Source: a virus. From it: DNA of 64,000 nucleotides. Location: positions 8,037 to 72,036 of IMG/VR virus record IMGVR_UViG_3300037461_001312, one strand, 5' to 3'. A model generated the notes under the pieces. It saw only the letters and a program-made list of their open reading frames with translations, did not search any database and was not told the DNA's origin. The translations under genes were made by a program, and so were the position numbers. Each line of letters starts with the position of its first letter. Within the stretch, counting starts at the first letter, position 1. This document shows positions 6,140 through 56,123 of this stretch, one piece after another.

Positions 6140-6143
6140 TCCT

Positions 6144-6368
6144 ATGTCAACTTCGATACAACTGGAGTACATGACCTGCCAAAACTGCGGCAGGGACATG
6201 GAGAGGTGGAACCTGAAAGCGGAGGTGGTCGACGGGGTACTCTGCGTCCGCTGCCCGCACTGCAGGGAGCATTTAAGACTAGTCATGAAAGGAGGTGTGA
6301 GCGAAGACGATATGCAAGGAGCAATCAACAAGACACTGGAGCAAACTATCACTGAGAAAGGAGACTAG
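6144..6368 (+). CDS. Zn-ribbon protein
   Basis: CQNC and CPHC pairs. Confidence 0.7.
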   Translation: MSTSIQLEYMTCQNCGRDMERWNLKAEVVDGVLCVRCPHCREHLRLVMKGGVSEDDMQGAINKTLEQTITEKGD

Positions 6369-17663: not shown

Positions 17664-18017
17664 TTAGTACCTGTAGCTGATGAGGAACTGGTTGATCTGG
17701 GTGATGACCGCCTCGTCGATGGTGGCCGTGATCCCCTGCACGTAGTCGTCATACGCCTTGATCACCGGCCAGGTCCTCTCGAACGTGGCGTACTCTATCT
17801 GCAGCACCTTCTTCTCCGCGGCACTGAGGTTGGGCAGGGCCATCTTGGCCTTGTAGCTGTCCACCTGGCTGTTGTAGATCCTCATCGCCACCAGCGACTT
17901 CTCCTTCGGCGTCATGTCCGCGACAGGCTTGATGTTGAGGTTCTGGGTGCAGGCATAGGCCATGAGCACAGTCACGACCACTGCCAGCAGCACGAATCCT
18001 TGGTGTTTATACCTCAT
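17664..18017 (-). CDS. Lipoprotein (possible o-spanin)
   Basis: Signal peptide with lipobox LMAYA-C. Confidence 0.65.
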   Translation of the reverse strand: MRYKHQGFVLLAVVVTVLMAYACTQNLNIKPVADMTPKEKSLVAMRIYNSQVDSYKAKMALPNLSAAEKKVLQIEYATFERTWPVIKAYDDYVQGITATIDEAVITQINQFLISYRY

Positions 18018-34539: not shown

Positions 34540-34549
34540 AGTCTGTCTC

Positions 34550-35917: not shown

Positions 35918-35933
35918 AGACTGCTCCCTTCCT

Positions 35934-36611
35934 CTACCACGCTACGACCGTGTTCGTCATGCGGTACTGTATCGCCACGCCGAACAGCCACGCGTCGTAT
36001 CCCATGTCGTCCGTGCCCCCTGTGTTGCGGGAGATCTTGAAGTAGACCAGGTCCCCCAGCCCCGGGGTGCCGTTGACGGTGACCGCAGGGGTAGCCGATG
36101 TCACGTGCATCTCCAGGTTCTTGTCCGTGAGCACCACGTCCGAGATCACCTCTCCCGTGTCCGTGAACTCCGTCGTGTCGATGTTGTCGTCGTTGGACAG
36201 GGATATCGCCTGGATCTGCCACTCCACGGTGTTGCCCGCAGAGCAGGCCGAGCTGCCCGGGGCCCAGTAGAACTTCGCCTTCAGCGTGCTGCGGTCCCAG
36301 TTCTCCGGCATGGTGATGCTGAAGCCAACGTACTCCTCCGGCGTCGTGTCGAAGGCGTAGTAATTGAGCAACACGTCGTCGCTGGTGGCGTACTCCGTAC
36401 TCCCCCCCTCCGCGCCCGCAGTGGTCAGCGCGGTCATGGCCGTCGCAGGGACCCAGATGATGTTGTACTCCGGGGCCCGCTTGTCCATGGTGTTCAGGTC
36501 CGTGATGACCCCGTCTATGTTCAAATCCGTGTAATTGATGGCCTCGTAGATCGTGTTCCCGCTCGGGGCACCGGAGGTGATCGTGAGGCTGTTCGCTTTG
36601 GTGAATGCCAT
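35934..36611 (-). CDS. Putative tail/virion structural protein
   Basis: Thr/Gly/Asp-rich beta-sandwich-like sequence in the tail module. Confidence 0.6.
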   Translation of the reverse strand: MAFTKANSLTITSGAPSGNTIYEAINYTDLNIDGVITDLNTMDKRAPEYNIIWVPATAMTALTTAGAEGGSTEYATSDDVLLNYYAFDTTPEEYVGFSITMPENWDRSTLKAKFYWAPGSSACSAGNTVEWQIQAISLSNDDNIDTTEFTDTGEVISDVVLTDKNLEMHVTSATPAVTVNGTPGLGDLVYFKISRNTGGTDDMGYDAWLFGVAIQYRMTNTVVAW

Positions 36612-36612
36612 G

Positions 36613-38730
36613 CTATGCCCTCCTGCTTGATGATATCTCCGCCACGAGGCGCTCCACCATGAAGGCCCCGCTGGTCAACGCGATGTCGAACTGGAACGAC
36701 TCCGTCGGCTGGTTGTAGTCCCCCTTCTTCTCCTCGTACAGCGTCTCGGGCCAGACATACATCTCGTCGTTTCCGCCTGCTCTGGTGTCGTACACATACA
36801 CCGGTGTCATCCCTATGCTGGTGTACACGCTGCCTACCGTGCCGGACCAGGAGTAGGTGGAGCCGGACTTGTAGGAGGAGAACGCGTACATGTAGTTCAT
36901 CGTCTCTGCCCCACAGGCGATCGACTGGCTGTAGTACCTCGTGGCCATCGTGCTGTTGTACACGTTCATGGTCAGGGTGCTGGCAGAGTAGTCCCGGATC
37001 ATCTCTACGACGTACTCTGTCGCCTCAGAGCCGATATACCACAGCTGGTCCGACGGGGAGCCACCGACGGACACGTAGTCCCCGCTGATCACCACCCCGG
37101 TATCGGCCACCGCGGTCAGCTTCACGTAATATGTCGCATACTTATTGGTAATGGCCGAGGCATACAGGTCGTCCACGTAGTTCGACAGGCCCCAGGCGTA
37201 CACGACGCTGTTGTTCACGGACGCGGCATTCATGTTGACGGAGAACCGCACGCTGAAGTCTCCACTGAACGGCGTCGCGGTGTAGTCGTAGTACACGTAG
37301 GACTCCGTCGTGCCCAGGCACGCAGCGGCCGTGATGGTGCTGCTGGCGCCCGTGAGCACTCCCGGCGTGTCCACCTCGGTGTAGGTGGCCAGGTCCGTAA
37401 TCGCCGCGTCCTGTGTGTTGTACACATACATCTGAGGCGCGGAAGTGGTCAGCGTCCCCCAAGTCGTAGCGGTCTGCCCGTAGTCCGTGTTGACCTTCAG
37501 GGTCCCGCTGCCAGCTGCCAGGGTGGTCCATATCAGGCGCGGGGACTTCAGCACCATCTCCCGGACGCCCTTGGCGAACATCTTCGTGGTGAGCCTGGAG
37601 GTGTACGCCCCGGACGTGTCCGCATAGGCCATGGAGGTGTAGTCGTACTTGTAGATGTACCCGTCGTCGCACCCGAGGTACATGTAGTCGCCTACCGGGT
37701 CGTAGTACGCGCAGTAGACCTTGCGGGACCCGAAGGTGAACCTCGTCCACGCGTTCAGATGGTAATGGTACACGAACATCGAGCTGTTCTTCGGGTCCGG
37801 GACGAACCAGATCTGGGCATCGCGCGGGTAGTGTGTGCCGAAGCAGTCCACCGACGCGTCGAACGCATTGGACAGCTTCAGCCCCGGGTTCTGGTCGTAC
37901 AGGATATTGCCGTACGTGTCGGTGCCCACCAGGGCGGACACGCAGTGCTCCTCCATGACGAAGACGCGGCCAAGCACGTGGACGGCTCCGGCGTGGGACC
38001 GCACCGAGTGACCGTCAGCAGCGAGCTTGTGAAGAGGGGTATCGTAGTCCAGCGAGGTGGCGTAGTACGTCTTCAGCCCGCCATAGCCCCGCTTGAATAT
38101 TATAAATGTCCCCTCGAAGGCCTCCAGGATGCCAACGACGCTGGTGTCGTCCAGGTATCCCACGTCGCCATAGTCGGTCGCGGTCCATATCGAGTCGTCG
38201 AAGTAGTTACACTGCTGCAGCCGGTCCACGTTGTCCTCGTCCCCGGAGGTCACCAGGCGGCTCACCTGCTGGAACACGTACGACGCCTTGGGGGCCCCGG
38301 TCACGTTCGCTATGGCCTGCGGCGTGGTGCCGGAGATGGAGATGTACTGCAGAAGAGCACCAGAAGCCACGATCAGCTTGTCGTTGAACGGGCAGAAGCA
38401 GGGGCGGGAGGAGCCGTTGAGTTCCCCCAGAGGCTGCGGGTCCTTGCTAGAGTCCAGGTAGTAGATCTTCCTGTCCGTCGTGGCCAGTATCCACTTCCCC
38501 TTCCAGTAGTGCATGTTGTACACTATGCCCGGGGCAGCGGTGTTGGAGTACTTGATGATGGGGTATCTCGTCCGCAGCCTGCCGCTGGTGCGGTCCATGA
38601 ACATGTTGTAGATCGCCGTGCACTCGTTGTCCGCGATCTGCGTCGGCGGGATGCCGGAGTTGATCCCGCCCGTGAAGGCGGACAGCTCTATGACCTGGGT
38701 TTCCTGGTGGTCTGTGGCCGTGTAGGGCAT
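36613..38730 (-). CDS. Tail nozzle/stabilization protein (P22 gp10/T7 gp12-like)
   Basis: FTGGIN N-terminus, beta-propeller-like repeats, YHYHLNAWT; position after the adaptor. Confidence 0.75.
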   Translation of the reverse strand: MPYTATDHQETQVIELSAFTGGINSGIPPTQIADNECTAIYNMFMDRTSGRLRTRYPIIKYSNTAAPGIVYNMHYWKGKWILATTDRKIYYLDSSKDPQPLGELNGSSRPCFCPFNDKLIVASGALLQYISISGTTPQAIANVTGAPKASYVFQQVSRLVTSGDEDNVDRLQQCNYFDDSIWTATDYGDVGYLDDTSVVGILEAFEGTFIIFKRGYGGLKTYYATSLDYDTPLHKLAADGHSVRSHAGAVHVLGRVFVMEEHCVSALVGTDTYGNILYDQNPGLKLSNAFDASVDCFGTHYPRDAQIWFVPDPKNSSMFVYHYHLNAWTRFTFGSRKVYCAYYDPVGDYMYLGCDDGYIYKYDYTSMAYADTSGAYTSRLTTKMFAKGVREMVLKSPRLIWTTLAAGSGTLKVNTDYGQTATTWGTLTTSAPQMYVYNTQDAAITDLATYTEVDTPGVLTGASSTITAAACLGTTESYVYYDYTATPFSGDFSVRFSVNMNAASVNNSVVYAWGLSNYVDDLYASAITNKYATYYVKLTAVADTGVVISGDYVSVGGSPSDQLWYIGSEATEYVVEMIRDYSASTLTMNVYNSTMATRYYSQSIACGAETMNYMYAFSSYKSGSTYSWSGTVGSVYTSIGMTPVYVYDTRAGGNDEMYVWPETLYEEKKGDYNQPTESFQFDIALTSGAFMVERLVAEISSSRRA

Positions 38731-39639: not shown

Positions 39640-39818
39640 ACGTTATGGCTCCTCTTGCGCATGGGCCGGCGTTTGGTCTCGTCGGAGTCGAGAAAACGCG
39701 GATGGATGTATTTCCCGTTCACGTGCACCATCTCGGACTCATAGAAGCGCAGGCCCGAGACCGCGCAGCGGCGGATGCGGGAGTCGTACTTGTTCAGTCT
39801 ACCGTATCGTCTGGCCAT
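39636..39818 (-). CDS. Small basic hypothetical protein
   Basis: MARRYGRL...CAVSGLRF; ATGA-coupled to the adaptor. Confidence 0.6.
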   Translation of the reverse strand: MARRYGRLNKYDSRIRRCAVSGLRFYESEMVHVNGKYIHPRFLDSDETKRRPMRKRSHNV

Positions 39819-39948
39819 CCGCACACCTCACAGCAATGATCCTGATCTCCGGCGCGTCCGGCGTTGGCAGTGGCTTCTGTGGTCGCCATCCCATACCGGA
39901 GACTATGAACAGAACGAGCACCAGGGCTATGAGCCTGACTATCTGCAT
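39799..39948 (-). CDS. Small signal-peptide protein (49 aa)
   Basis: MQIVRLIALVLVLFIVSGMG-WRPQKP. Confidence 0.45.
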   Translation of the reverse strand: MQIVRLIALVLVLFIVSGMGWRPQKPLPTPDAPEIRIIAVRCADGQTIR

Positions 39949-40343
39949 ACCTGTGTCGCATTGCCCAGCTCCGGCGCATCCGGGACTACGCTCACCCCGC
40001 AGTTGACCGTTACGCTCTTCGCCGCACTCCACCCGTAGGTCAATGCCTTCGTGCCATCAGAGCGTGTCACCTCGACCACCGCCCCGACACGGTACGAGTA
40101 TGTCCCATCTGCCAACCCTGTCACCGTGAGGCTGGTGCATCCTGGGAGACACTGTTGGGCAAGGAGACTCCCGTTCTGCTCCACGACGTAGTATTTGAAC
40201 ACGGGAGACATGGACGCAGGGAACACGCTTGACCTCGGCGTGGGGTCGTCCAGAGATTTCGTGACAGCAATGGTCACATCATGGGCCTGTGCGAATGAGG
40301 CAAAGGCCAGTACCAGGAACACTGTTGCTATTAGCTTTTTCAT
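39939..40343 (-). CDS. Secreted FN3-like protein
   Basis: Signal peptide MKKLIATVFLVLAFASFAQA; FN3-like TGLADGTYSYRVGA...WS. Confidence 0.7.
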   Translation of the reverse strand: MKKLIATVFLVLAFASFAQAHDVTIAVTKSLDDPTPRSSVFPASMSPVFKYYVVEQNGSLLAQQCLPGCTSLTVTGLADGTYSYRVGAVVEVTRSDGTKALTYGWSAAKSVTVNCGVSVVPDAPELGNATQVCR

Positions 40344-40351
40344 AATTCCTC

Positions 40352-42901
40352 CTATCGAAAACTCGTTCCACTCATCGTGCATCCTGTGGCGGATGGGGGT
40401 GTGGTGCCACCTAACTGTGAAGATTGCCACCAGTTTTCAGGGAGTTCAGCCATCCAAACATTCCTAGCACTGCCGCCTGCGGTATCACCAGTTGCGTTCC
40501 ATGATGTAAAAAAATACACCCTTGATCCAGACCTATTTGCAGTAACTTCTCCAACTCCAGAATCTCCATAAGCCCCGCTGTATGTGTGAAATAAATGATA
40601 AAAAAGTGGGGTTGGAGTGTGTGTTGTGTTATTATATCCTATACTCTTTAAATTCAGCATTCCAACTAAACATGCAGACCATCTGTTTGATTTAGTTCTA
40701 TTAGCAGAACTACACGGATAGTGGCTTACTAAGCTCCAACCATTAACCGATGAAGAAAAAGGAGCAGAGAAATATCCATACGAAACATCTTGAGTTCCGT
40801 TCTCTATAGGCCAGGGTCTATACATCAACCTAGTAGCTGATACTCCTACCCCAACATAGCCATAACCGTCTCCACCTATATCAAATCCAGCAGCAACATT
40901 GTTACCAACACTATCTTTTGCTGTGTCCTGATGTGTTGCCCATATATTCAAGTAAGTTACTCCGGTCTTGCTGAAGTCAGATCCCATAGTAGACAGATTG
41001 TAGAAAGCTGCACTGTGAGATGGATAATCTTCACAAGAAGAATAAGGATCGCAGCTACCTCCTATATAAACATATGATCCATCATCTGATGACATTACGT
41101 TGTTAATACTGCCATGTCTACTTACAAGCTCAGCTCTATCTATCTGAGATATAATTGTATTGCTGACGGAATCATAAACAAATACATATTGGTAAGTAGA
41201 ACTATCATAGACCAACCATGTCCAGTATCTTCCATTGGCAGAAGAATCACCTTCATCGGCAGTTCCTATAGACACCATACCAGGGAAATCAGACGAAAAA
41301 TCACGAACAAGAGTTTTCGCTGAATCAGGAGCCGCATCAGTAATATCCACTAGGTACAGTTTCATTCCGTACAGCCAGTAAAATTTATTTGGATCAGTCG
41401 GATGCCATCGAGGTTCACATAATATTTCAGCACCAAGATAACTATAAGCCAATGCAAAAGTTTTCAGCGGTTTAGCAAACGTAGGACTGTTTTTGTTAAC
41501 ATCTACCACAACAAACGAATACCCGCCAGAACTGCCACCCCCTACTACTAATGCTCTAGTCTCATCGCAGTTTTCTGGACTCCAATGCGTATATCTGAGA
41601 ATAGTCGCAGAGGAATAGTCTGAATAATCAGTAAGACGATATAACACAGTATCAAATTTTCCATCACGATAGGCAACACCCCTACTAGGTAATGGGGGAG
41701 GTGTTGCATCAACTTGATATGTCGGGGTAGTACCCCATGCTGGAACATCTTTTATATAAGTATAATTGTCATAAGGATACCCCACACGGTATGAGCTTGT
41801 CACTCTGTAATCTGATACCACAATATCATCATAGGCATACCACGTCTCCAACTCCCCTGCCGGTCTGTAATACGAGTTGTTCCCACCAAATCCAATCGAG
41901 TTCCAACCTAGGTCGGAAGGAGTGCCAGACTTCACCCACTGCATATTGTTGAATGAAAACTGAGCCACCCCGTCAATGTAATATTCCAATACCCCATCCG
42001 CCACATTAGAAGCAGAGTTAAGTTTCAGATGATATTCGTGACAATGGTAATCCCCATCACCGTAGTTTCCTGAAGTTTTCCAGCCCCCGTTTCTAGTTCC
42101 AGAGTCCAAGGTGGCGTAAACATCAGCTTCTCCAGCAACGCCAGCCTTCCAATCACCAGCATCTAAATCACCGACAACAGGAACCCAGTCTGTCCTATTA
42201 GCGTATGGAAATTGTCTAACCCACGCATAATGCCATCTCATTGGGAGTCCACCACTGTCAACATCATCGGATCTTTGGGTGCCGTGTATAAACTTAGGAG
42301 TGTGTTGTTCAACCCCCCCTGTTGTAACCCCACTCCAGTCCGTGAGATGCCTCGCATTGTCAGACAGATACAGGCTGTGATTGTAGTGCGAAACACTAAG
42401 CCATTTTTGTGTATTGTTGCCTTCATAGTAATTGGTATCAAACTTCCTCCACACGGTTATCCAAATATCAGTATATCCCTTACTGGTTAAGGCATCTCCA
42501 AGAAATAGATATAAAGTTCCACTAGACGCATCTCCACTAGAATCGACAGCCGGAACCTCTGAGTAATGCGTTATAGCGTTTCCTGAACCTCCTCTAGCGT
42601 TTGAAGTACCAAGTGTAACGGTATTATAGGTATTTGTTGTCATAAAGGTGCGGTAGTCGTACCAACCAATCCAGCGGGGAATCACTCCAACTGATGTCCT
42701 AGTGGATGGAAAATCTGTCGCCCCGTATGTATAGGCAGTTGGAATATTCCTGATCTCGTTCGGACCGCCAGCATTAGGCTGCGTGATATTCCAAGCAGCA
42801 TCACTATTGAAGTTAGTCTCAAAAATGATGGTCTTGGAATAGCCCAAGGATGAAAACATGAACAAAATAAACAGGGTAACTAAATATATCATCTTTTTCA
42901 T
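40352..42901 (-). CDS. Secreted 849-aa protein: polysaccharide-lyase/ConA-like domain plus beta-propeller
   Basis: Signal peptide MKKMIYLVTLFILFMFSSLGYS; HCHEYHLKLN...DGVLEYYIDG; EPRWHPTDP, DEGDSSANGRY; AT-rich. Confidence 0.7.
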   Translation of the reverse strand: MKKMIYLVTLFILFMFSSLGYSKTIIFETNFNSDAAWNITQPNAGGPNEIRNIPTAYTYGATDFPSTRTSVGVIPRWIGWYDYRTFMTTNTYNTVTLGTSNARGGSGNAITHYSEVPAVDSSGDASSGTLYLFLGDALTSKGYTDIWITVWRKFDTNYYEGNNTQKWLSVSHYNHSLYLSDNARHLTDWSGVTTGGVEQHTPKFIHGTQRSDDVDSGGLPMRWHYAWVRQFPYANRTDWVPVVGDLDAGDWKAGVAGEADVYATLDSGTRNGGWKTSGNYGDGDYHCHEYHLKLNSASNVADGVLEYYIDGVAQFSFNNMQWVKSGTPSDLGWNSIGFGGNNSYYRPAGELETWYAYDDIVVSDYRVTSSYRVGYPYDNYTYIKDVPAWGTTPTYQVDATPPPLPSRGVAYRDGKFDTVLYRLTDYSDYSSATILRYTHWSPENCDETRALVVGGGSSGGYSFVVVDVNKNSPTFAKPLKTFALAYSYLGAEILCEPRWHPTDPNKFYWLYGMKLYLVDITDAAPDSAKTLVRDFSSDFPGMVSIGTADEGDSSANGRYWTWLVYDSSTYQYVFVYDSVSNTIISQIDRAELVSRHGSINNVMSSDDGSYVYIGGSCDPYSSCEDYPSHSAAFYNLSTMGSDFSKTGVTYLNIWATHQDTAKDSVGNNVAAGFDIGGDGYGYVGVGVSATRLMYRPWPIENGTQDVSYGYFSAPFSSSVNGWSLVSHYPCSSANRTKSNRWSACLVGMLNLKSIGYNNTTHTPTPLFYHLFHTYSGAYGDSGVGEVTANRSGSRVYFFTSWNATGDTAGGSARNVWMAELPENWWQSSQLGGTTPPSATGCTMSGTSFR

Positions 42902-42914
42902 ATCTATACTTCCT

Positions 42915-43787
42915 CTACGGGACCCTAGTTACTGGGTATCCAGCAGTATCTTTTATTGCAACAATGTCAATGTACCAATCATTGTTCCTGCTATCATCTA
43001 ACACATGGCCTAGATAGACACCTTTAATACCGGCCGCTGAGAATGTACCTCCATTGACAACCTCAGCACCAACGGCTGTAACCCCGTCTTCCCTGTAAAC
43101 CTTCATCTTGCAGGCGGTGGATGCTTCCCAGTCACCGACTATTTGCAGGTGCTCTCCGGTTCCGAGATATGTGTCAACATCTACTGATCCTATTACTGTA
43201 AGGCTAAATCCATTATGGCAGGATAACCTAAGAGAAGATGCCGTTCCGTCGTGGTATAGATGAATCTGCATCCGCTCAATAGAACTATCATCCACCAAAA
43301 GCACCAAAGCTGACGTTTGAGTATCGGACATACCATCTAATACCCAATCAAGGGAAAACCTAAACCCAAGATTTGCCTTTGTGTCAGCAAGTGTCAGTAG
43401 TAAATTGGCTACAGGAGTTCCATCACTGTCATCATATTTAAGGCAGTTGGTTTCCCCGTTCCAGCCATTGCCGCCGGTGTCCTTAGTTAAAGTGTCTCCT
43501 GTATCAGATTCAGTAGTCCATACATGACCAGCCCCGCCTCCAGTATTTTCTTCGTCGCTACCATCCTTCCATGTGCAGGAAAAGAGAAAACCTGTTTCCT
43601 CTGCCTCACCAGCAGGAGCCGCAGGCACACCCCCGCCCACTATCGCAGGGGAGAGTCGGGCCAGTTGGACGGATTCACTACATTGCTGTGGGAAGGTGTC
43701 AAGGCACTCCTCAGCATACTGCTGCGCCCGTGACTCGCAGGGCGGGACGAAGCACAGAAGGATGAGTAAGCAGATCAGTCGTTTCAT
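42915..43787 (-). CDS. Secreted ConA-like protein
   Basis: Signal peptide MKRLICLLILLCFVPPCESRA; Gly linker, then a beta-sandwich-like sequence. Confidence 0.65.
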   Translation of the reverse strand: MKRLICLLILLCFVPPCESRAQQYAEECLDTFPQQCSESVQLARLSPAIVGGGVPAAPAGEAEETGFLFSCTWKDGSDEENTGGGAGHVWTTESDTGDTLTKDTGGNGWNGETNCLKYDDSDGTPVANLLLTLADTKANLGFRFSLDWVLDGMSDTQTSALVLLVDDSSIERMQIHLYHDGTASSLRLSCHNGFSLTVIGSVDVDTYLGTGEHLQIVGDWEASTACKMKVYREDGVTAVGAEVVNGGTFSAAGIKGVYLGHVLDDSRNNDWYIDIVAIKDTAGYPVTRVP

Positions 43788-43796
43788 GGCAAACCC

Positions 43797-44282
43797 CTAT
43801 GGCAACGTCGCGTTGTTCGCTCCCGTCAGCACCGCCGGACGCATCTTGGCCCAGATGAGTGCGCGGAGCCCCTTGCCCAGTGCAACACCGACATCCTGAG
43901 ACCGGATAGAAAACGAGAAGGTATCCGTGAAGCAGGTGTCTCCAGCATACAGGCCCGTCCCAGTGCCCACACCCGTGCAGCCGTTGTATGGGACACCGAC
44001 CCCGGTGCAGTCCGCAGCGAGCTGTGCCGGGACGTCCTGGCAGGTCCAGGTGCGGTCCACAGTAACGTTTCCTACTCTGGGGATGGGGCCATTGTCAGCC
44101 CCCAGGAAACGATAGGTGACCGTCACAAGTTTGTTGGTGACATCGATGTTGATGTTCCTGAGGTCCAGCTTGGTCGCTGTGGGGACAGCCAGTGATTCCG
44201 GTGAATTCAGGGTAAGGACCTGGGCATAGGACGCCCCGCACAGCGCAGCTACGATGAACAATGACACTATCAGCTTCTTCAT
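43797..44282 (-). CDS. Secreted hypothetical protein
   Basis: Signal peptide MKKLIVSLFIVAALCGASYA (start 44282). Confidence 0.7.
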   Translation of the reverse strand: MKKLIVSLFIVAALCGASYAQVLTLNSPESLAVPTATKLDLRNINIDVTNKLVTVTYRFLGADNGPIPRVGNVTVDRTWTCQDVPAQLAADCTGVGVPYNGCTGVGTGTGLYAGDTCFTDTFSFSIRSQDVGVALGKGLRALIWAKMRPAVLTGANNATLP

Positions 44283-44324
44283 GACTCTATCCTCCGTTGT
44301 TGATCGTTCCCTCATCAATCCGTC

Positions 44325-47300
44325 TTATTGCTCTGCCCATGTTCCGACCGCCGACGTCGCGTACCAGTCCGTGGCATCGAAAGCAACTACGCAAATCTGG
44401 TTAGACGCACTGGAAGTGGCGGCGTAGTAATCTCCGGCAGCAGAAGTCCTCGCACCGGTGGTCATCACGATATAGTCTGTCCCATCCGTGTCTAGAGTAA
44501 GAGTCTGCGCATTGCCCTGGCCCATCTTAAAACAGACCCATGCCCCTGCTTCCGCCCCAGGGAGAGTGTAGGTAGTCGCTCCGGCAACGGTCGTTATAAA
44601 GAAAGTCCCTGCCTGAACCTGAGCTTGGGTGACGGCGTATTCCGTAGTCCCGCTGTTAACCACAACGGGAATTTTGCCAGAGATGGTCCCAGTGGTTACG
44701 ATGTTCAAAGCAGAAAAGCTGATTGCTGCCTCCGAGCTCGTCACAACCACGCTTCCCACGGTATCGTCGAGGTTGATGGTTAAGGTCTGGTCGTCCCCTG
44801 CGCTCTCACCGGTGAAGGTGATAGCCCCGTCATCGTCCGAGGTGAGGGCTACTCCTGTAGTCCCGACATGGACTCCCGTCGCCGCCGCAGTCGTTATGGC
44901 ACCCGTGGCCGTGATGGTCATGCCGGTGAGAGTTTTAGGAATATCCGCGTCTGCGATTGCCCTGAACGCCGGTGCGCCCGCCGTGGCCGTGGCAAACATC
45001 GCCTGAGTCGTGGTCGTGCTAGTCGCCGCCACCAGCACGGTCCCGGTCACATCGGGGAGGGTAGCTACTTTCGCTGAACTAGCATCCGTATTGATGAGTT
45101 GGATATTGTTAGTCGCTGCATCCCCAATGAAAATACTGGAGAAGGGTAGGGCAGTCGTTCCTATTACTGTCGCCCCTGCCGCGGAGGGCAGGATAGAAGT
45201 CGTGAATACAGGCGACGTCCCCAGCACCGGAGCGCCTGTGCCGGTCGACGCTGTCCACACGGGGATTGTCGTGACCCCCGCGCCTACCAGCTGATAGTTC
45301 GCGGCACCCGCGGCCAGGTATGACAGTGCCGCACTGGCCCCATTGGACATGAGGAAGGAGCCCACTGCGCCCGGAGCCAGGGCCGCTATCGTATTGGCCG
45401 TGGCCGCGTGGAGCAGGCCTCCCTGGACGTAGGTATCGGCAAAGGTAGAGGTTGAGTAGGCATTCAGGCTCGCCCCGGCTCGGAGGATAGTGCCTTCCGC
45501 GCCTTTGGCCAACCTTGCCCAGGTATTGTCGGCCGAGCCCTGGATCAGATCTCCCGCGGCATCGGCTAAGGTGTTGGCGATATTGCCTGAGGCCGTTCCC
45601 GTGAGTGCTCCTGTTACGCCTCCGTCCGCATAGATCATCCCGTCCACTTCCAGGAATCCCGTGATGTACGCGTCCGCGCCGTCCAGTGTCTGGGTCTGAG
45701 TCCCCGCGCCGATCTTCAGGTTGCCCGTGGTGATCTGGAACAGGTCCGTCGCGGCCACGAGCGCTGCGACCATGTCGTCGGTGGCGTTGACTCCCAGGGT
45801 CACGTCGGTTCCGGTAGCCGCCAGCTCCCACGCAATAGTAGCGGTGTTGGCCAGCCGCACTTGCCCCGCGTCAGCGGCGGTCGCTGCGGACCCGAGGATG
45901 ATGTAGGGTGATTCGATATAGGTCGTGAAGACCTGAGAGTCTATCAGAGCTAACGTTCCAGTAGTGGAAGGAAGGGTTAGAACTACCGCGCTAGCCGCTG
46001 CCGTGTTAATCAGTTGCACATTGTTGGTGGCTGCGTCTCCAATAAACACCGAGGAGAACGGGAGAAGTCCTGTCCCTAGGCTTGCGTTAGCGAACGTATT
46101 AGGCGTAATTGAGGTTTCAACCGTAGGAGCAGTGAAAGCCTGTACTCCGGTGAAGGTCTGCCCCGCGTCGGTTCGGGCCAAGGTAGCTGTGGTAGTGGGG
46201 AACGTGATCACCGTATTAGGAGTGAAGTCCAGGGTTATACTCGTTGCCCCATCGCCTAGGGTGAGAATCTCCGTGTCGGACTCGAAGTACATCTGCCCTG
46301 CTCCAGTGATCCCGCTTGCCGTTGCAGTCCCTACCACCATCGGGATGGAGGTCGTCGCACCTCCGGCGCTGAACGTCGCGGTCCCAGCAAAGGCGAGCGC
46401 TCCATTAGCACCAAATTGAGTGTAGTTCGTGCCGTCTCCTATCCTTGCCGCCGTGACGTCCGTGTCCGTAACGAGCACTTCAAACAGCACGCCGCCCGAG
46501 GGGTTCCCGGTATCCTGTAGAATCTGAAACTGCGAGCCAGTAGTAAAGGCCCCGGTGTACTGCCACACCACCTCCTCTCCGGCAGCGAAGACGATAGTCG
46601 AATCCCCCACCGGATCTCCTACAGTGTCCAGGGTGGGACTGCCTGCCGTCGCGTCTGCCCCGCAAGTCCAGTTGCCACTGCCGTCCGTCTTCAGAATATA
46701 TCCGGCAGAACAGGTATCGAAATCAAAGGTCTGGAGTGCATTGTCGGCACTTGACCCGCCGGCGTGGAGCAGTAGTTGATGACCGGTGGGGTTAATGCTT
46801 ATTTCTCCGCTTGAATCCGCGGAGGCGGTCGGCAGCCTGAGGTTGGTCACCCCGGCGAAAGAATGGGAAGTCCCGGTCCATGTCACCGAGTCTGCAGGAG
46901 TTACAATGTCCCGCTGGGTCCCGTTTTCGCACAGGGTGGCAACATCGTTCAGAAAGAACACACCGTCGCTGGAATAGCAGGCGGTCATGCTCGTGTTGCT
47001 TGTGAACCACGTGCCTCTCTGCTCGTTCGTGCCTGTGCCTCCTATGAACTTAGAGGCGTAGACAGTTCCTCCCGCCTCGACATCGCCTTCCACATACAGC
47101 GCGTTAGTCGCAGTGGCATATGTCGGCGCGCTGGTGTCGTCGTCATCGATGTTCACCTGGCGGGAGTTGCCTCCGATGATCCTGGAGCGGATCGTCACCG
47201 TGTCGGTGTCTGCGTCGCCAAGCACATAGGACCCCGTCAGAGTGCCCGCGAAGGCCGGATTGGCTGCAGCGCCACCGGACATGAGAAGCTGTCCTGCCGT

Positions 47301-49346
47301 GCCCGCCGAGCCCAGGGTAGCCGGAGCGGCACCGGCACCGCCGCCCATGACAATCTGATACTGGGCGAGAGCGGCGGAGGAGGTTATCGCATCCGAAGCG
47401 CTGTAGTACGGAACACCGCCGGAGGTTCCGGAAGTCAGCCCCGTACCGCCGTTCCCCACCGGCAGGGTGCCTGTGACTCCGTTGGCGAGGTTGACCTGCG
47501 CCCACGCTGGGTTGTTGTTGGTCCCCGTGTTGGACAGGTACCTGGTCGCAGTAGCGTCCTTGGCGAGCCGGGCCCATGCGGTTCCGCTGGATGCGTACAG
47601 CGTGTCCCCCTGGGCCTGGCTCGTGATGGTTATCTTCGACGCGTCGATCGTGTCGCTCAGGTTCAGCTGCGTCGTGCCTATGGTCAGGTTCTTGCCGGTG
47701 GCGATCGTCACGGAGGAGTTGCTGGTTATCAGCCCGTCCCCGAATGTCAGCGACGGGTCGAGCGTACCGGAGTTGTCCCACGTCCAGGCGATAGACGCCG
47801 CGCCACCCGCGGCCCAGGTGCGGGCGCCTGTGATCTCGGCGGTATCTACCGCCAGGGTATAGGTACTGTTAGCCCCGCCATCTACTTCTGATAACCCAGC
47901 GCCCGCTACCAGATATCTATCCGCAGTCAACGTCGAGTCATTCGCTCCGATGAGCATATAGGGAGAGTCGATGGGCGCTGCCGCCGCGGCGAACGCCTTC
48001 CAGCCCGAGTCGTAGATCTTTATGGAAGATGACGCCGTATCCCAGGCGATATAGCCTACGCCAGCAGACGGGTTGAAGTTGCCCCAGGCGGGGAGCTTCA
48101 GGCCCTCGGGAGTGGTGCTGGAGTGCGTGATGCCAGAGAAGTCTATGAGGTCTCCGTCCGCGAACGTCAGGGTCGCACCCAGGTTCGCCGCGGTTAGATC
48201 AGTTCCGATATAAGCTGCCGCTATGGCCGTCCCATTCCACGTGCCCGCTACGATGGTGCCGGCGTCCGTGATACCACCTGTGAACGTCGTGGCGGGAGTG
48301 ATTGTCACGCTGGTCGTGTTCGCGTCCCCGATAGTCAACACCTCTGTCGCGCTGACCGTCATCGCCGTGACTTCCCCGGTGCCCTCGGTGTCCTCGAATA
48401 TGATCGTGCCCGTGTTGGGCAGGCGGATCGTCCCCGCGTCAGCAGGATTAGTACCCAGAGCCAGGCTGGCCCCGCCAGAAATATTATCGCTCCCATCTAT
48501 CAGCACCCCGGTCTTCTTGACGCCCTTGGCCCCGTCGTCACCGACCACGACCGCGGTCGTGTCTATAGCCGCCGCGGCGGTGACATCGCCAGCGCCTGCG
48601 GTGGGAGACGTCCAGCTGAGCACTCCTGACCCGTCGGTAGTAAGCACCTGGCTGGCAGTCCCGTCCGTCGTGGGCAGAGTCAGAGTATACCCGGCGGCTA
48701 TCGCCGGCACCTGGATCTTCACCGCGTCGGTCCCGTCACTGGAGTCCTCATAGATGTTGATAAATCCCGACGCCGTCGCCCCATACTTCACGTCTATGCC
48801 TGCGTTGAAAGTCGCAAGGCCCGTCGTGGCCAGCGTCCCCACTCCAGACATGTTGTCGCTGTCGTCCAGCGCCACGCCGGACTTCTGCACCTTGGGCAGC
48901 GTAGTCCCGTCTGCGCGGATGAGCACATTGTCCGTGACGAAGTTGGACACGCCGGAGATGACTAGGTCGGCAGTGGTGCCTGCCAGGTTGGGGATATACA
49001 GCGTCCCGTCGGACCCGGTCGCGTCCCGGCCGACCAGGATCGTCTCCACCCCGTCCGCGGTGGTGCCCTCGAAGTAGAGGGTATTGCCCTCGCCGTCCGC
49101 GGTGAACACGCCGGTCGTGGTGCCATCGCCGACCTGGGTGATGGTGCCTGTGCCACCGACGGTCAGTGTCGCCACGCCGCTGGTCAGTGCCAGGCTGGTG
49201 TTCGGCACGATCATCTTCACCGCGAATCCGGCAGGCGACCCGTCCGCCTCCTCCAGCAGCATGCCGATGCTGCGCTGGGCGTAGGACGTGCCCGATAAGG
49301 CCAGTACCGCTATCATCACCATAGCTACAATCAGCTTGTTCTTCAT
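44325..49346 (-). CDS. Long tail-fibre-like protein (1673 aa) with an N-terminal signal peptide
   Basis: Start MKNKLIVAMVMIAVLALSGTSYA at 49346 (GAGG RBS); Thr/Gly/Ala-rich with fibre-type repeats (TLTLP..DG, GD.LYA..WARL). Confidence 0.8.
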   Translation of the reverse strand: MKNKLIVAMVMIAVLALSGTSYAQRSIGMLLEEADGSPAGFAVKMIVPNTSLALTSGVATLTVGGTGTITQVGDGTTTGVFTADGEGNTLYFEGTTADGVETILVGRDATGSDGTLYIPNLAGTTADLVISGVSNFVTDNVLIRADGTTLPKVQKSGVALDDSDNMSGVGTLATTGLATFNAGIDVKYGATASGFINIYEDSSDGTDAVKIQVPAIAAGYTLTLPTTDGTASQVLTTDGSGVLSWTSPTAGAGDVTAAAAIDTTAVVVGDDGAKGVKKTGVLIDGSDNISGGASLALGTNPADAGTIRLPNTGTIIFEDTEGTGEVTAMTVSATEVLTIGDANTTSVTITPATTFTGGITDAGTIVAGTWNGTAIAAAYIGTDLTAANLGATLTFADGDLIDFSGITHSSTTPEGLKLPAWGNFNPSAGVGYIAWDTASSSIKIYDSGWKAFAAAAAPIDSPYMLIGANDSTLTADRYLVAGAGLSEVDGGANSTYTLAVDTAEITGARTWAAGGAASIAWTWDNSGTLDPSLTFGDGLITSNSSVTIATGKNLTIGTTQLNLSDTIDASKITITSQAQGDTLYASSGTAWARLAKDATATRYLSNTGTNNNPAWAQVNLANGVTGTLPVGNGGTGLTSGTSGGVPYYSASDAITSSAALAQYQIVMGGGAGAAPATLGSAGTAGQLLMSGGAAANPAFAGTLTGSYVLGDADTDTVTIRSRIIGGNSRQVNIDDDDTSAPTYATATNALYVEGDVEAGGTVYASKFIGGTGTNEQRGTWFTSNTSMTACYSSDGVFFLNDVATLCENGTQRDIVTPADSVTWTGTSHSFAGVTNLRLPTASADSSGEISINPTGHQLLLHAGGSSADNALQTFDFDTCSAGYILKTDGSGNWTCGADATAGSPTLDTVGDPVGDSTIVFAAGEEVVWQYTGAFTTGSQFQILQDTGNPSGGVLFEVLVTDTDVTAARIGDGTNYTQFGANGALAFAGTATFSAGGATTSIPMVVGTATASGITGAGQMYFESDTEILTLGDGATSITLDFTPNTVITFPTTTATLARTDAGQTFTGVQAFTAPTVETSITPNTFANASLGTGLLPFSSVFIGDAATNNVQLINTAAASAVVLTLPSTTGTLALIDSQVFTTYIESPYIILGSAATAADAGQVRLANTATIAWELAATGTDVTLGVNATDDMVAALVAATDLFQITTGNLKIGAGTQTQTLDGADAYITGFLEVDGMIYADGGVTGALTGTASGNIANTLADAAGDLIQGSADNTWARLAKGAEGTILRAGASLNAYSTSTFADTYVQGGLLHAATANTIAALAPGAVGSFLMSNGASAALSYLAAGAANYQLVGAGVTTIPVWTASTGTGAPVLGTSPVFTTSILPSAAGATVIGTTALPFSSIFIGDAATNNIQLINTDASSAKVATLPDVTGTVLVAATSTTTTQAMFATATAGAPAFRAIADADIPKTLTGMTITATGAITTAAATGVHVGTTGVALTSDDDGAITFTGESAGDDQTLTINLDDTVGSVVVTSSEAAISFSALNIVTTGTISGKIPVVVNSGTTEYAVTQAQVQAGTFFITTVAGATTYTLPGAEAGAWVCFKMGQGNAQTLTLDTDGTDYIVMTTGARTSAAGDYYAATSSASNQICVVAFDATDWYATSAVGTWAEQ

Positions 49347-49386
49347 GCCCACACCTCGCTTATTGCTTCGCTTCGCGAAGCGAAGA

Positions 49387-49944
49387 CTACAGATGTTCCT
49401 TCGCGTCAAACCACCCGTGGATGTTGAACGAGGACGACGCGACGTCCGTGACGATGTTGATCGCCACCTCGCCCAGGTATCCCAGGATCAGCGTCCCGTC
49501 CAGGTTGATGTCGTGCACGTTCGTCGCGGGCATCTGGTAACAGGACAGCAGAGTCATCCCCGCGCCCGCGTCGACACCGGTGTTCGTGTGCCTGCAGGTC
49601 GCCTGGGCGACATTGTTGATGCTGCGGTTCATGCAGGTCCCGACGACGGCCGTGCCTGCTACCGCATTGCCCGTGCCCACCCAGATCTCGACCACGGCAG
49701 TGGCCGCCACGGAAGCGGTGATACGCTCGACATGCAGCACCTTCACGGTCGAGTCGTTGCGCAGCCAGAGGACGTTCTTGTCCGCTCCCCAGTCCGCCGT
49801 CGCGGTCCACACATACGCCTCGCCTTCGGTCCTGGATATGGCAGAGATAGCGCTGAACACGACGGAATCCGTGTGGAGCCTGTTGAGTATGCAGACCTCC
49901 GCCTCTCTGCCGCTGCCTTTCCCGTCTCTTATTGTCATTCCCAT
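49387..49944 (-). CDS. Hypothetical virion protein
   Basis: Packed in the late operon, GC3 bias. Confidence 0.7.
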   Translation of the reverse strand: MGMTIRDGKGSGREAEVCILNRLHTDSVVFSAISAISRTEGEAYVWTATADWGADKNVLWLRNDSTVKVLHVERITASVAATAVVEIWVGTGNAVAGTAVVGTCMNRSINNVAQATCRHTNTGVDAGAGMTLLSCYQMPATNVHDINLDGTLILGYLGEVAINIVTDVASSSFNIHGWFDAKEHL

Positions 49945-49947
49945 AGC

Positions 49948-50130
49948 TCATTCCTCCGTATCAAAATACGTCCCTGTCAGCTCTGCCAGGTACTTGTTCA
50001 TCGCGCGCAGCTCGGACAGGATAGACTGCAGCAGGATCCTCGTGTCGGGGAAATCCACCTCCAGTGGATTGCTGCGGACTCCGGCGATCTGGCCGTCGCC
50101 GTCCACTATTCTGGTTGCGCCACCGCTCAT
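49948..50130 (-). CDS. Small hypothetical protein
   Basis: ATGA overlap with the upstream gene. Confidence 0.65.
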   Translation of the reverse strand: MSGGATRIVDGDGQIAGVRSNPLEVDFPDTRILLQSILSELRAMNKYLAELTGTYFDTEE

Positions 50131-50429
50131 CCGATGTACACGTAGAGCAGGCTACCGGATCCCGCGTTGTCGATCGTGGCCAGGATGAACCCGTTGTACC
50201 ACTGCTCCAGGACGGTCTGCTCCAGCCCGTAGGACTCGTTGTTCACTCCCGAGGCGGCCGCGCGGATTCCCCAGATCTGGACGCCAGAGCCGTCGGTCAC
50301 GACGCAGTCATCGTCGGCCGCGGACGGCTTGAACACCATCTTCTTGATGTAGACGGGTTCGGTGGACGTCTTGATCGTGGCCGCCGTGTCCAGGGTCCAT
50401 ATGTTCTTTCCCAGGTTAGTATTCGCCAT
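50127..50429 (-). CDS. Hypothetical virion protein
   Basis: GGAGG RBS; beta-rich 100 aa. Confidence 0.7.
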   Translation of the reverse strand: MANTNLGKNIWTLDTAATIKTSTEPVYIKKMVFKPSAADDDCVVTDGSGVQIWGIRAAASGVNNESYGLEQTVLEQWYNGFILATIDNAGSGSLLYVYIG

Positions 50430-50433
50430 GGCC

Positions 50434-50730
50434 CTATACCTCCTTTACGCTCGTAACCACATCCGTAGGCATCTTGGGCCTGAACACGACGAAGTCCTGT
50501 ACAGGAGACCATGGGCCCCATTGGATGAAAGCCCTGGACCACCTGGCTCCGGCCCGGATGCGGATCTTATGAGTTCCGTCGGACAGCCCGGTAAGGTCCG
50601 CCTCCATTCCTCCGTCTGGCAGAGCAGGGAACTCCTTCTGCTCTATTCCGTTGAGCTCAATCTGATAGTGGGTAACCCCAGCCTGTGCCCCGGCTGTAAG
50701 AATCTTTTTCAGTTTTTTCTCTACTGTCAT
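50434..50730 (-). CDS. FN3/Ig-like small protein
   Basis: DLTGLSDGTHKIRIRA...WGPWS FN3-type pattern. Confidence 0.6.
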   Translation of the reverse strand: MTVEKKLKKILTAGAQAGVTHYQIELNGIEQKEFPALPDGGMEADLTGLSDGTHKIRIRAGARWSRAFIQWGPWSPVQDFVVFRPKMPTDVVTSVKEV

Positions 50731-50735
50731 CTCCG

Positions 50736-51218
50736 TTATCCTCCTTGCTTGACTAAGTCTGATTTCCTGAACGCTTCCAGCAGCTGGGGGAGTATGGAAT
50801 CCCAGCTGTATACGAACGCACGCTGCACGTCGACCCGGTGCCGGGTGATGACCACCTCGACCACGCCAGGGATCGTCCCCAGCGCCGCACTGAGCCTATA
50901 GGCCTTGGTGTTCCGGTCCGCGTCCCTGTCCTTGGACCAGGTGAAGGTCCCGGCGCCCAAGATCGGGTCCCAGGTGGAGAACACGGCCACGAGGCTGCTG
51001 CCCCCGTTCTGGGTCGCTACGATGGTGTACTGGCCCTGGTCGAATCCGACCCATTGGCCTGGGGTCGGGGTAACAGTCCTCGGCTGCGCCTGCGGCTGCG
51101 CCACCGCCGCCGGCGCCGACGCCGACGCCCCTGGCTTGGGTGCGTCTGCCGCAAAGGTTCCCGCTAGAGGAACCACACACAATGACAGCAACACGACTAC
51201 GATTGCCAATCTCCTCAT
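50736..51218 (-). CDS. Secreted protein with Ala/Pro-rich linker
   Basis: Start 51218: MRRLAIVVVLLSLCVVPLAGTFA-ADAPKPG. Confidence 0.7.
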   Translation of the reverse strand: MRRLAIVVVLLSLCVVPLAGTFAADAPKPGASASAPAAVAQPQAQPRTVTPTPGQWVGFDQGQYTIVATQNGGSSLVAVFSTWDPILGAGTFTWSKDRDADRNTKAYRLSAALGTIPGVVEVVITRHRVDVQRAFVYSWDSILPQLLEAFRKSDLVKQGG

Positions 51219-52589: not shown

Positions 52590-53507
52590 CTATGCCGTGG
52601 TCGTTGTGGCTGGGTGCTTTATGGTGAACTGCGCGGCTTTGGCCGCCTCGGTCGCCAAGAGGTCAATAGTTCCAAGGATATTGGACGGCAGGATTATATC
52701 CGTGACGTCTGCCGTATACGCCAGGCAATTCGCGACCAAGCCTGTACTGGCTGCAAGAGGTTTTATAGCAGGCTCTCCGTCGGCCATACCCATGAAAACA
52801 CAGTCCTTGATCAGCCAGCCCAGCGAGGCGCTGGAGCTGACCGTGATGATGCCATGGTCGCATCCTGCCGAGCCCACCACATTGAAATAGCACCCGGATA
52901 CAATCACCCGGTGCACCATCACGCTGCTGAAGATGATCGCATCTGGCCCCGCCGCCGATGCGACGAAGCTGCAGTTCTTGATCGAGATGTCCGTCGAGGC
53001 GGTCCCACTGAGCAGAATCGTGTACAGCTGCTTCGACGCCGGGGCGAAAAAGCACCCTTCCACATCGACGTAGGATCCGGAGATCGTCAGCAGCGGCTCG
53101 TTGGTCCCCGTGGCGGAGCCGGTGAAGTAGACGTTGGCGATGCGGTTGTTGGAGCCCGAGACGGTCAGCATCCCCGTGCTTCCCGTGGTGCCCTGCGTCA
53201 GGTTAGGTCTCGCCGTGCCGTTGCCCAGCCCAATGATGGACACGTTCGCTATGCTCAGCGTCACCGTGGTGCTGATGGTCTCCGCATGAGACGGCATCAG
53301 GATGATCACGTCGCCTTTGTTCGTGGTGCAGGCGGTGATGGCCGTGGTCAAGGTCGCGAACGCCTGAGTCGGATCCAAGCCACTGTTGCTGTTGGACCCG
53401 GTGGCGGAGTCTACAAAATAGACTGTTCCGGTGGTGACGATCGGTCCCGCGCCGATTACCGGGATGCCAAACGATGAGATGCCGTGTGGATATCTTGAAA
53501 GAGTCAT
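52590..53507 (-). CDS. Right-handed beta-helix (pectin-lyase-fold) virion protein
   Basis: YFVDSATGSNSNSG...AFATL...GDVIIL, then repeated I.N..F turns. Confidence 0.8.
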   Translation of the reverse strand: MTLSRYPHGISSFGIPVIGAGPIVTTGTVYFVDSATGSNSNSGLDPTQAFATLTTAITACTTNKGDVIILMPSHAETISTTVTLSIANVSIIGLGNGTARPNLTQGTTGSTGMLTVSGSNNRIANVYFTGSATGTNEPLLTISGSYVDVEGCFFAPASKQLYTILLSGTASTDISIKNCSFVASAAGPDAIIFSSVMVHRVIVSGCYFNVVGSAGCDHGIITVSSSASLGWLIKDCVFMGMADGEPAIKPLAASTGLVANCLAYTADVTDIILPSNILGTIDLLATEAAKAAQFTIKHPATTTTA

Positions 53508-55592: not shown

Positions 55593-56123
55593 TTAACTAT
55601 TGCTCCTGGCCTCTTTGATGGAGGTCAGGCGGTTTCGTACGTCGTCCTTGCTAACTGAGCCAAGGCCTCTCATATTCAAGGTCCGAAGTTTCCACAAGAT
55701 ATCTATGAATTCCTCGAACAGGTGAGAGTTCTTAGGTCCACTGGGCGCTAAGTCCAGGTACTTCAGAACCAGCTCGGCCTGAGCTTTTTTAGAGGCTAGA
55801 ACATCCAGTATCTGCGGGAGCACATGCCTGCACTGATTAGCGCCTAACGATACCTTCGCCACCAGTTTGTTATTCTTCACCTTCTTACTGGGCAAATGCT
55901 CCGTGATCAGTCCGTTTCCCATCACCTCTCGGGCCCTGATAAGAAGTGACAGATCCGAGTTGTAGATACACACGTTCGGCCCCAACCGGAATCCCATGAC
56001 ATTCTCGTCACGCTTCCAGATACTGAGGCTGATCGTGCCCTCACCGTCGAACAGACCGGCGATGTATCCGCGTTCCAGGTCTGTCATAATCTTATCAGTT
56101 ATCAGGTTCTGAAGTATTAACAT
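55593..56123 (-). CDS. LAGLIDADG homing endonuclease (single motif)
   Basis: YIAGLFDGEGTI motif, SKKAQAEL; AT-rich. Confidence 0.9.
   Translation of the reverse strand: MLILQNLITDKIMTDLERGYIAGLFDGEGTISLSIWKRDENVMGFRLGPNVCIYNSDLSLLIRAREVMGNGLITEHLPSKKVKNNKLVAKVSLGANQCRHVLPQILDVLASKKAQAELVLKYLDLAPSGPKNSHLFEEFIDILWKLRTLNMRGLGSVSKDDVRNRLTSIKEARSNS

Follow-up and report, generated by a model that had tools for sequence, protein, structure and literature searches.

Secretion-type leaders on the fibre and companion proteins of a receptor-binding cassette in an uncultured podovirus

An uncultured, short-tailed, lytic-type podovirus with a genome of about 75 kb carries a receptor-binding cassette in which the fibre and five further proteins begin with leaders of the Sec/signal peptidase I (SPI) type, and a phage receptor-binding cassette with secretory-type products is what is new here. 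The genome is IMG/VR virus record IMGVR_UViG_3300037461_001312, a complete sequence of 75,278 bp with a 127-bp direct terminal repeat, and the window, that is, the whole stretch of 64,000 nucleotides (nt) to which coordinates refer unless another contig is named, corresponds to its bases 8037-72036. The six products are probably genuine Sec substrates, and their export is predicted. Related to this, it is proposed, as a speculation to be held with some reserve, that tailed phages of several lineages could have two-compartment virions, whose whole host-recognition apparatus would be exported by Sec, cut by SPI, disulfide-bonded and clipped on when the holin breaches the membrane. Such a two-compartment assembly, if shown, would be categorically new.

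The preliminary description of this DNA had listed seven starts with basic, hydrophobic and then small-residue N-termini. All seven were found on the minus strand, and six of them (51218, 49346, 44282, 43787, 42901 and 40343) have the three-part layout of a Sec/SPI leader, the calls being made by a hand-written rule together with conservation in homologues. The n-regions hold one to three Lys or Arg within the first 2-4 residues, the hydrophobic cores comprise 13-17 uncharged residues with a maximal 10-residue hydropathy of 3.0-3.6, and small residues occupy positions -3 and -1. The leader of the 160-amino-acid (aa) protein with its cleavage site is MRRLAIVVVLLSLCVVPLAGTFA↓A, and the others end in ...LSGTSYA↓Q (1673 aa), ...CGASYA↓Q (161 aa), ...PCESRA↓Q (290 aa), ...SSLGYS↓K (849 aa) and ...ASFAQA↓H (134 aa). 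Shine-Dalgarno-like sites (GGAGG, GAGG or GGGGG) at normal spacing precede all six starts and most genes of the phage, so the annotated starts are correct. Neither a lipobox ([LVI][ASTVI][GAS]C) nor a twin-arginine (Tat) motif is present in any of the six leaders, the six mature N-termini have no common docking motif, and the portal, capsid, adaptor, nozzle and ejection proteins lack any signal-like start. The genes of the block and its edges are the following (GC3 is the G+C content at third codon positions).

50736-51218, minus strand: 160-aa protein; Sec/SPI-type leader (about TFA↓A), then a linker rich in Pro and Ala, then a small C-terminal domain; mature part Cys-free; sub-threshold Nfu_N match
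50434-50730, minus strand: 98-aa FN3-like protein, no signal; one segment in common with the 134-aa protein
50127-50429, minus strand: 100-aa protein, no signal; conserved backbone gene at the upstream edge of the slot; weak phrog_23862 match
49948-50130, minus strand: 60-aa protein, no signal, no family match
49387-49944, minus strand: 185-aa protein, no signal, directly upstream of the fibre gene; real frame, GC3 0.84
44325-49346, minus strand: 1673-aa fibre-like protein with a 23-residue Sec leader (SYA↓Q); shaft homology to phage fibres
43797-44282, minus strand: 161-aa protein of exported type and of a conserved family; Sec leader SYA↓Q; at least 35 homologous clusters
42915-43787, minus strand: 290-aa protein, Sec leader SRA↓Q, six mature Cys, GC3 0.45
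40352-42901, minus strand: 849-aa protein, Sec leader GYS↓K, eight mature Cys, GC3 0.35 (the lowest)
39939-40343, minus strand: 134-aa FN3-like protein, Sec leader AQA↓H, four Cys; close homologue at the same place in contig L021
39799-39948, minus strand: 49-aa protein with one N-terminal transmembrane helix; C-terminal tail conserved in L021
39636-39818, minus strand: 60-aa Arg-rich protein (MARRYGRLNKYDSRIRRCAVSGLRFYE...), downstream edge of the slot; no Pfam match

From the fibre gene to the 134-aa gene (starts 49346 to 40343) five signal genes stand in a row, as had been claimed, an arrangement expected by chance with P ~6e-5 when seven such genes are placed at random among ~90. The 160-aa gene is separated from the fibre gene by four signal-less genes (98, 100, 60 and 185 aa), and a crude scan of every open reading frame (ORF) of the 75,278-bp genome found just one further real gene that starts in this way, a member of the lysis cassette at 17664-18017. 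On the other hand, the gene starting at 39948 does not belong among the signal-peptide genes, where it had been placed: its 49-aa product has one Arg (position 5) and a hydrophobic stretch of 19 residues but lacks a -3/-1 site, and it is read as a membrane anchor at the N-terminus rather than as a cleavable signal. An Arg/Gly-rich ORF of 181 aa at 49406-49951 on the minus strand was discarded as a shadow frame of the 185-aa gene (GC3 0.48 versus 0.84).

A survey of homologues for signal conservation, which had been suggested as a check, was positive for the 161-aa family, for the fibre and for whole loci. The 161-aa family comprises at least 35 homologous clusters with 45-78% identity. Among 30 full-length members the pairwise identity is 30% in the leader versus 63% in the mature part, and the n- and h-regions and the -3/-1 positions are nevertheless kept in 30/30 (-1 is Ala, Gly or Ser, and -3 is Ala, Ser, Gly, Thr, Val or Leu, in every member), with Gln at +1 in 27/30. 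Such drift of the residues with the shape kept is typical of leaders that are cleaved off and not of an element with a structural role. A member of the family follows a signal-bearing fibre in contigs L007, L008, L012, L015 and L016; as far as L013 was compared, its genes match those of L012. The AlphaFold model of the 161-aa protein reaches a pLDDT (predicted local distance difference test) of 80 and has no fold match in the PDB or in the AlphaFold DB clusters. A role as fibre-tip chaperone was considered unlikely, the preceding fibres in L007, L008 and the window having unrelated C-termini.

In 185,579 species genomes the 161-aa family gave spurious matches of 19-28 residues alone, with no prophage and no host found. 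Strong Shine-Dalgarno sites are unusual for Bacteroidota hosts, and those of this phage argue against a typical host of that phylum. Gln at +1, which occurs in three of the six window proteins, hints at a host in the Bacteroidota or Ignavibacteria (the Q-rule, PMC5837995).

The 1673-aa protein consists of the leader, an N-terminal beta module of about 35 residues (LLEEADGSPAGF..K..VPN.SL) and a mosaic shaft that is common, piece by piece, with other phage fibres; it reads as a mosaic, trimer-type fibre, and it is the shaft homology that would place it in the tail-fibre class. The shaft has 28 homologous clusters with piecewise identities of 30-83%, different stretches matching different long proteins, and the clusters that were looked up lie in phage contigs, after an ejection protein or before an adaptor. 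Some proteins with common shaft modules (P0017, P0023 and P0029) are signal-less and have ordinary fibre starts, and P0023 and P0029 carry PF13884. Comparison of fibre residues 24-195 with 1.84 billion representatives yielded 219 relatives, and in 10/11 distinct clusters a signal-like start precedes the first conserved element, LLEE-x-DGSP-(S/A)-G...K..V.N.SL, by 5-15 residues; the eleventh, without signal, may be mis-started. The AlphaFold model of residues 1-200 is confident just for the leader helix and a four-strand module (29-61), and Pfam and PHROG gave no match to a known virion-docking N-domain such as that of T7 gp17.

Although the preliminary description placed these genes inside the tail module, they are better described as forming a variable receptor-binding cassette, with the head genes on one side and the adaptor on the other. 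The minus strand bears a single long late operon carrying the virion genes together with the signal-bearing block, whose genes are 5-42 nt apart or overlapping. After a LAGLIDADG gene the order is a methyltransferase fusion, a 305-aa beta-helix protein, the signal block, the adaptor and the nozzle, and the proteins on either side of the block are the following.

52590-53507, minus strand: 305-aa right-handed beta-helix protein, no signal, N-terminus MTLSRYPHGISSFGIPVIG; homologue in contig L017
38755-39639, minus strand: head-to-tail adaptor of SU10/T7 type, no signal; PF24175 at 4e-8; 34 homologues
36613-38730, minus strand: 705-aa nozzle-like tail protein, no signal; called from its position after the adaptor and 47% identity to the post-adaptor gene of contig L018

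The adaptor homologues found in metagenomes are 50-86% identical, and a metagenome scan for adaptor relatives returned contigs of 1-2 kb alone. In L018, whose adaptor is 71% and whose nozzle is 47% identical to those of the window, the adaptor is preceded by a 118-aa homologue of the 100-aa protein and by two signal-less tailspike-like proteins of 612 aa (Pfam Beta_helix) and 535 aa, whose N-termini, M(G/A)ENKYI.(D/E)L, have no homology to any signal-bearing protein. L021 (adaptor 77%) retains the 134-aa and 49-aa genes of the window. In L023 (78%) and L025 (74%) a gene of the 100-aa family lies directly beside the small Arg-rich gene, which leaves the slot empty. The somewhat more distant L017 has homologues of the 305-aa and 100-aa proteins and, adjoining the latter, a signal-bearing fibre with the same N-module, accompanied by three more signal genes, one of them Pel9A-like. 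In the contig of the fibre relative P0076, too, SU10-type adaptor genes lie downstream of the fibre gene, a few genes away. The small Arg-rich family (MARRYG.LNKYDS..RRCA.SGLR.Y..EMV) occurs before the adaptor in the window and before each L018 tailspike (5940-6236 and 8088-8390 of that contig); its proteins may be fibre-associated or regulatory and may mark cassette boundaries. These gene orders place the block in an exchangeable receptor-binding cassette slot, bounded on one side by the 100-aa gene and on the other by the small Arg-rich gene with the adaptor and nozzle after it, and closely related backbones carry cassettes now with, now without signals.

Other phages, too, have whole runs of signal genes at the fibre position: relatives of the fibre stand there amid further signal-bearing genes in at least nine other uncultured phage contigs. 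In L002, L004, L005, L006 and L007 they directly follow a giant ejection protein, which is the position of T7 gp17, and have further signal genes as neighbours, some of them for Pel9A/beta-helix enzymes; the flanks of these five showed no fibre or spike that lacks a signal. The contig of P0003 has the same order of ejection protein and fibre, according to its gene table alone. L004 has seven signal genes in a row from the ejection protein to the lysis genes; two of the products are beta-helix enzymes, and two have canonical lipoboxes. The L007 fibre has its leader fused precisely to a classical fibre N-terminus: residue 22 (ADVKISDMPAMTEPDGSDVIPIVD; ADVKISDMPAM...) aligns with residue 2 of an annotated tail fibre protein of the cultured cyanophage KBS-S-2A (ANVKITDLTAYTNPASTDVLPIVD; 40% identity over 65 residues), so that cleavage would restore the end of an ordinary fibre. 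The module has reached long-tailed phages as well, because L016 has a tape-measure protein (PF10145), with the 161-aa family and signal-bearing neighbours downstream of its distal-tail genes.

As regards oxidative folding, which had been read from Cys pairs, disulfides in the exported proteins are somewhat probable. The mature Cys counts of the six signal proteins (0, 6, 4, 6, 8 and 4) are all even, whereas 18/36 of the other genes have even counts. The mature part of the 161-aa family has four invariant Cys and a facultative pair, both residues being present in 14 members, neither in 16 and a single one in none, a distribution that would fit a third disulfide. In the fibre the pairs are 790/806, 879/895 and 1605/1652, the first two spaced 16 residues, and 790/806 and 879/895 are absent as pairs from four homologous modules. 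The argument from pairs stands for the facultative pair and the fibre; as a general rule it does not, the signal genes of related loci having 19 even and 20 odd counts (by a crude cleavage rule).

Among the companions of the fibre, the 849-aa protein has a predicted model that looks like a PL14-like jelly roll with a beta-propeller after it, and relatives of the C-terminal propeller half with 27-33% identity were found in 13/401 Acidobacteriota genomes. A lectin or jelly-roll fold for the 290-aa protein is a lead only, drawn from language-model neighbours, many of them viral. The GC3 of the 849-aa gene (0.35 versus 0.7-0.9 in its neighbours) and the GC content of 0.45-0.48 over both genes (40352-43787), versus ~0.60 phage-wide, suggest a recent acquisition from a lower-GC source. 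The signal-bearing 134-aa and the signal-less 98-aa proteins have in common an FN3-like segment (33% identity, 49 residues), and one FN3-like domain thus occurs with and without leader in a single phage. Pfam and PHROGs gave nothing for the six signal proteins apart from the sub-threshold Nfu_N match of the 160-aa protein, and a PDB sequence search yielded no usable match to the fibre or to the 849-aa or 305-aa protein. By tblastn against 50,697 GenBank phage records, no match was obtained for the fibre, its N-module, the nozzle, the 290-aa or the 849-aa protein; the portal weakly matched Anabaena phage A-4L. The phage thus stands at a great distance from its cultured counterparts.

According to the mechanism that we favour, the six products would be made late, alongside the virion proteins, pass through the inner membrane of the host, lose their leaders to SPI and fold in the periplasm, some of them with disulfide bonds, and the DNA-filled head with its portal, adaptor and nozzle would be built as usual in the cytoplasm. 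Holin lesions and lysis would then merge the compartments, and we infer that the exported fibre would first meet the particles at that moment. Its attachment would be the last assembly step, which could finish within seconds at cellular (micromolar) concentrations, and the sugar-binding and sugar-cutting proteins would perhaps join the particles along with the fibre. T7, P22 and T4 fibres or tailspikes can attach to particles in vitro. The whole chain of export, periplasmic folding and attachment at lysis is put forward as a serious possibility rather than a probability, and attachment to the virion after export, taken by itself, calls for the same caution. The earlier note had named three destinations (the virion at lysis, display on the cell and a membrane-associated assembly step) and chosen none; the evidence now makes the virion slightly the likeliest. 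Use in the virion is favoured because the cassette occupies a tailspike slot, several phages have no signal-less alternative at the fibre position, the window phage has no other long fibre, and the L007 leader sits on a fibre N-terminus.

Several observations pull the other way. To our knowledge, fibres and tailspikes are assembled in the cytoplasm in all tailed phages that have been studied, we know of no tailed phage that attaches exported fibres, and two-compartment assembly is purely our construction. The fibre N-module was never found free of a signal and has no relative among the 50,697 GenBank phage records, so that it lacks any link to a virion. Canonical lipoboxes occur in a 1259-aa fibre relative of L004 (LLGGC) and in two proteins of L015, and lipid anchoring suits a location in the cell envelope better than one in the virion. 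A 248-aa protein just after the signal-bearing fibre of L002 (L002:14575-15321) starts with a Tat-type motif (MNRRKFLLNAYRVGG...). The empty slot of L023 and L025 puts the cassette outside the conserved backbone, the 849-aa protein looks like an acquired bacterial secreted enzyme, and even Cys parity fails in the related loci. Finally, the signal-less 305-aa beta-helix protein could be the true receptor-binding protein of the virion.

These points lead to the best-surviving alternative, which is possible, if doubtful: the products would be exported without joining the virion and would form a late envelope or secreted tool-kit of fibre-like adhesin, lectin and polysaccharide-enzyme proteins, in the periplasm or at the cell surface. 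Possible roles would be destruction or masking of receptors, loosening of capsule or matrix for release, exclusion of other phages, or adhesion of the infected cell to new hosts, and the virion would recognise its host via the 305-aa protein. The lipoboxes, one of them on a fibre relative, and the Tat motif speak for it, as do the empty slots, the occurrence of the 161-aa family and its signal-bearing neighbours across tail types, the low GC and bacterial-type relatives of the 849-aa and 290-aa genes, and the lack of a match to the fibre N-module among cultured phages. A signal-less receptor-binding protein would also be at hand, since the 305-aa protein belongs to a very large family of viral proteins of ~300 aa (dozens of Atlas clusters, all Uroviricota). 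Against this stands, above all, the lack of a signal-less fibre or spike at the fibre position of L002 and L004-L007, although no tailed phage can do without one; in L018 the slot of the block is occupied by ordinary tailspikes, and in L007 a classical fibre N-terminus begins precisely where the leader ends. Pfam revealed no outer-membrane sorting signal on the window proteins, and a 1673-aa fibre confined to the periplasm would have no obvious job. The genes also lack a promoter or terminator of their own: promoter-like and terminator-like sites in the block are no commoner than in shuffles, so that the mark of a moron of the lambda lom/bor type, its own promoter and terminator, is absent from the block genes.

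It is improbable that the N-termini are merely signal-like, serving in the cytoplasm as an inner-face membrane tether or as a trimerisation or docking helix within a textbook assembly. The general rule of cytoplasmic assembly and the unenriched Cys parity of related loci would agree with that explanation. However, unrelated proteins in a row have just the signal layout in common, cores of 13-17 residues are too short for a stable membrane span, and the -3/-1 rule is kept throughout the 161-aa family while its leader drifts; sister modules have canonical lipoboxes and a Tat motif, the Cys pair of the 161-aa family co-occurs, and the portal, capsid, adaptor, nozzle and ejection proteins have no such start.

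Some Klebsiella phage depolymerases occur both free and virion-bound, and the fibre has a Met29 six residues past the predicted cleavage site, just before the conserved module; even so, two isoforms per gene, a cytoplasmic virion form from an internal start after the leader and an exported full-length enzyme or adhesin, are very improbable and were rejected, since no Shine-Dalgarno-like site precedes Met29 or any in-frame start within 10 residues of cleavage in the six genes, whereas the annotated starts have one; in the 161-aa, 290-aa and 849-aa genes, internal starts close to the cleavage site are lacking altogether.

Lambda Lom and Bor, T5 Llp and phi80/N15 Cor are exported proteins encoded in or beside tail modules and acting in the host envelope. 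Each of these is a small outer-membrane protein or lipoprotein encoded singly, in many cases from a promoter of its own, whereas the block extends over 11 kb, holds the only long fibre of the genome and is devoid of lipobox, own promoter and terminator. In the papers found by full-text search, signals on tail fibres or tailspikes are described nowhere; the phage signal peptides in print belong to endolysins, spanins, Porphyromonas phage genes of unknown function (PMC10367356) and prophage carbohydrate enzymes. The Porphyromonas gingivalis phages (Matrishin et al. 2023, PMC10367356) resemble the present one in having SPI signals whose cleavage exposes Gln (Q-rule, PMC5837995); their genes, which have no known function, are read as envelope modifiers and include no named tail parts, and the present phage has strong Shine-Dalgarno sites. 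Sec-dependent and signal-anchor-release (SAR) endolysins (PMC6116005) are likewise late phage proteins that use the host Sec system before lysis, but they are lysis enzymes and not virion or receptor-binding proteins.

The fibres of SU10 and T7 dock on the adaptor by their extreme N-termini (PMC9509320), so a leader would preclude N-terminal docking unless it were removed. With T7 gp17, SU10 gp12/gp13 (PMC9509320) and the L018 tailspikes the block has in common the slot beside an SU10/T7-type adaptor and nozzle, the mosaic shaft and the sugar-binding or sugar-cutting companions. It differs from these classical podovirus fibres, which have no signal peptide and dock in the cytoplasm, in that a leader takes the place of the anchor domains and that no T7-tail-fibre domain is found with Pfam.

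The closest system in print is that of the mosaic adhesive trimer (MAT) fibres of Bdellovibrio bacteriovorus, in all 21 of which the signal peptide leads straight into a conserved beta-rich domain (Caulton et al. 2024, PMC10769870). Both kinds of fibre are long, mosaic and phage-fibre-like, with a signal peptide followed by a beta-rich N-module, swappable shafts and tips, and folding after export, which in the phage is predicted. The MATs, as Sec-exported phage-fibre-like trimers on a cell surface, are a precedent for export without joining a virion. However, they are encoded by chromosomal genes of a bacterial predator, whereas the phage gene lies in a late structural operon, in a tailspike slot of a complete 75-kb genome. 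The MAT N-domain has ~130 residues versus ~35 in the phage module, the likeness being one of layout, and an S74 chaperone domain was not detected in the phage fibre.

If the favoured mechanism were true, a Sec step would be added to tailed-phage assembly, infectivity would be tied to the export and disulfide machinery of the host, and it would be explained how environmental phages get disulfide-stabilised fibres. Pipelines that file signal-bearing phage genes as non-structural or 'auxiliary' would misplace receptor-binding proteins, and such fibres and depolymerases would call for periplasmic expression systems. If, on the other hand, the proteins stay on the infected cell, they would form a large, undescribed class of phage-encoded surface adhesins and enzymes, from which bacterial fibre adhesins, the MATs among them, would probably have evolved.

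Apart from the block, the complete genome has no second long fibre, and its sole other receptor-binding candidate is the 305-aa beta-helix protein, for which head fibre and tailspike are candidate roles; the homologue in L017 is flanked by glycosyltransferase-like genes. The remaining virion genes and the gene next to the capsid gene were assigned as follows.

59304-61355, minus strand: portal; weak Head-tail_con match
56187-57131, minus strand: HK97-type capsid protein; Phage_capsid_4 and Mu gpT matches
55593-56123, minus strand: LAGLIDADG-type homing endonuclease, directly 3' of the capsid gene; sub-threshold Pfam matches
29963-31426, minus strand: 487-aa ejection-type protein, farther along the operon
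19422-29945, minus strand: 3507-aa ejection-type protein, farther along the operon

The lysis cassette beyond the ejection-type genes includes an M15-like endolysin. The 3507-aa and 487-aa ejection-type proteins contain no cysteine, in contrast with the Cys-paired exported proteins, which fits a need to unfold on leaving the head. A LAGLIDADG-like domain is present too in a 590-aa protein of L015. A 510-aa protein encoded on the plus strand (34508-36040), with no match in Pfam or PHROG and a low GC3 of 0.52, contains 19 Cys (3.7%); no other protein of the genome is as rich in Cys.

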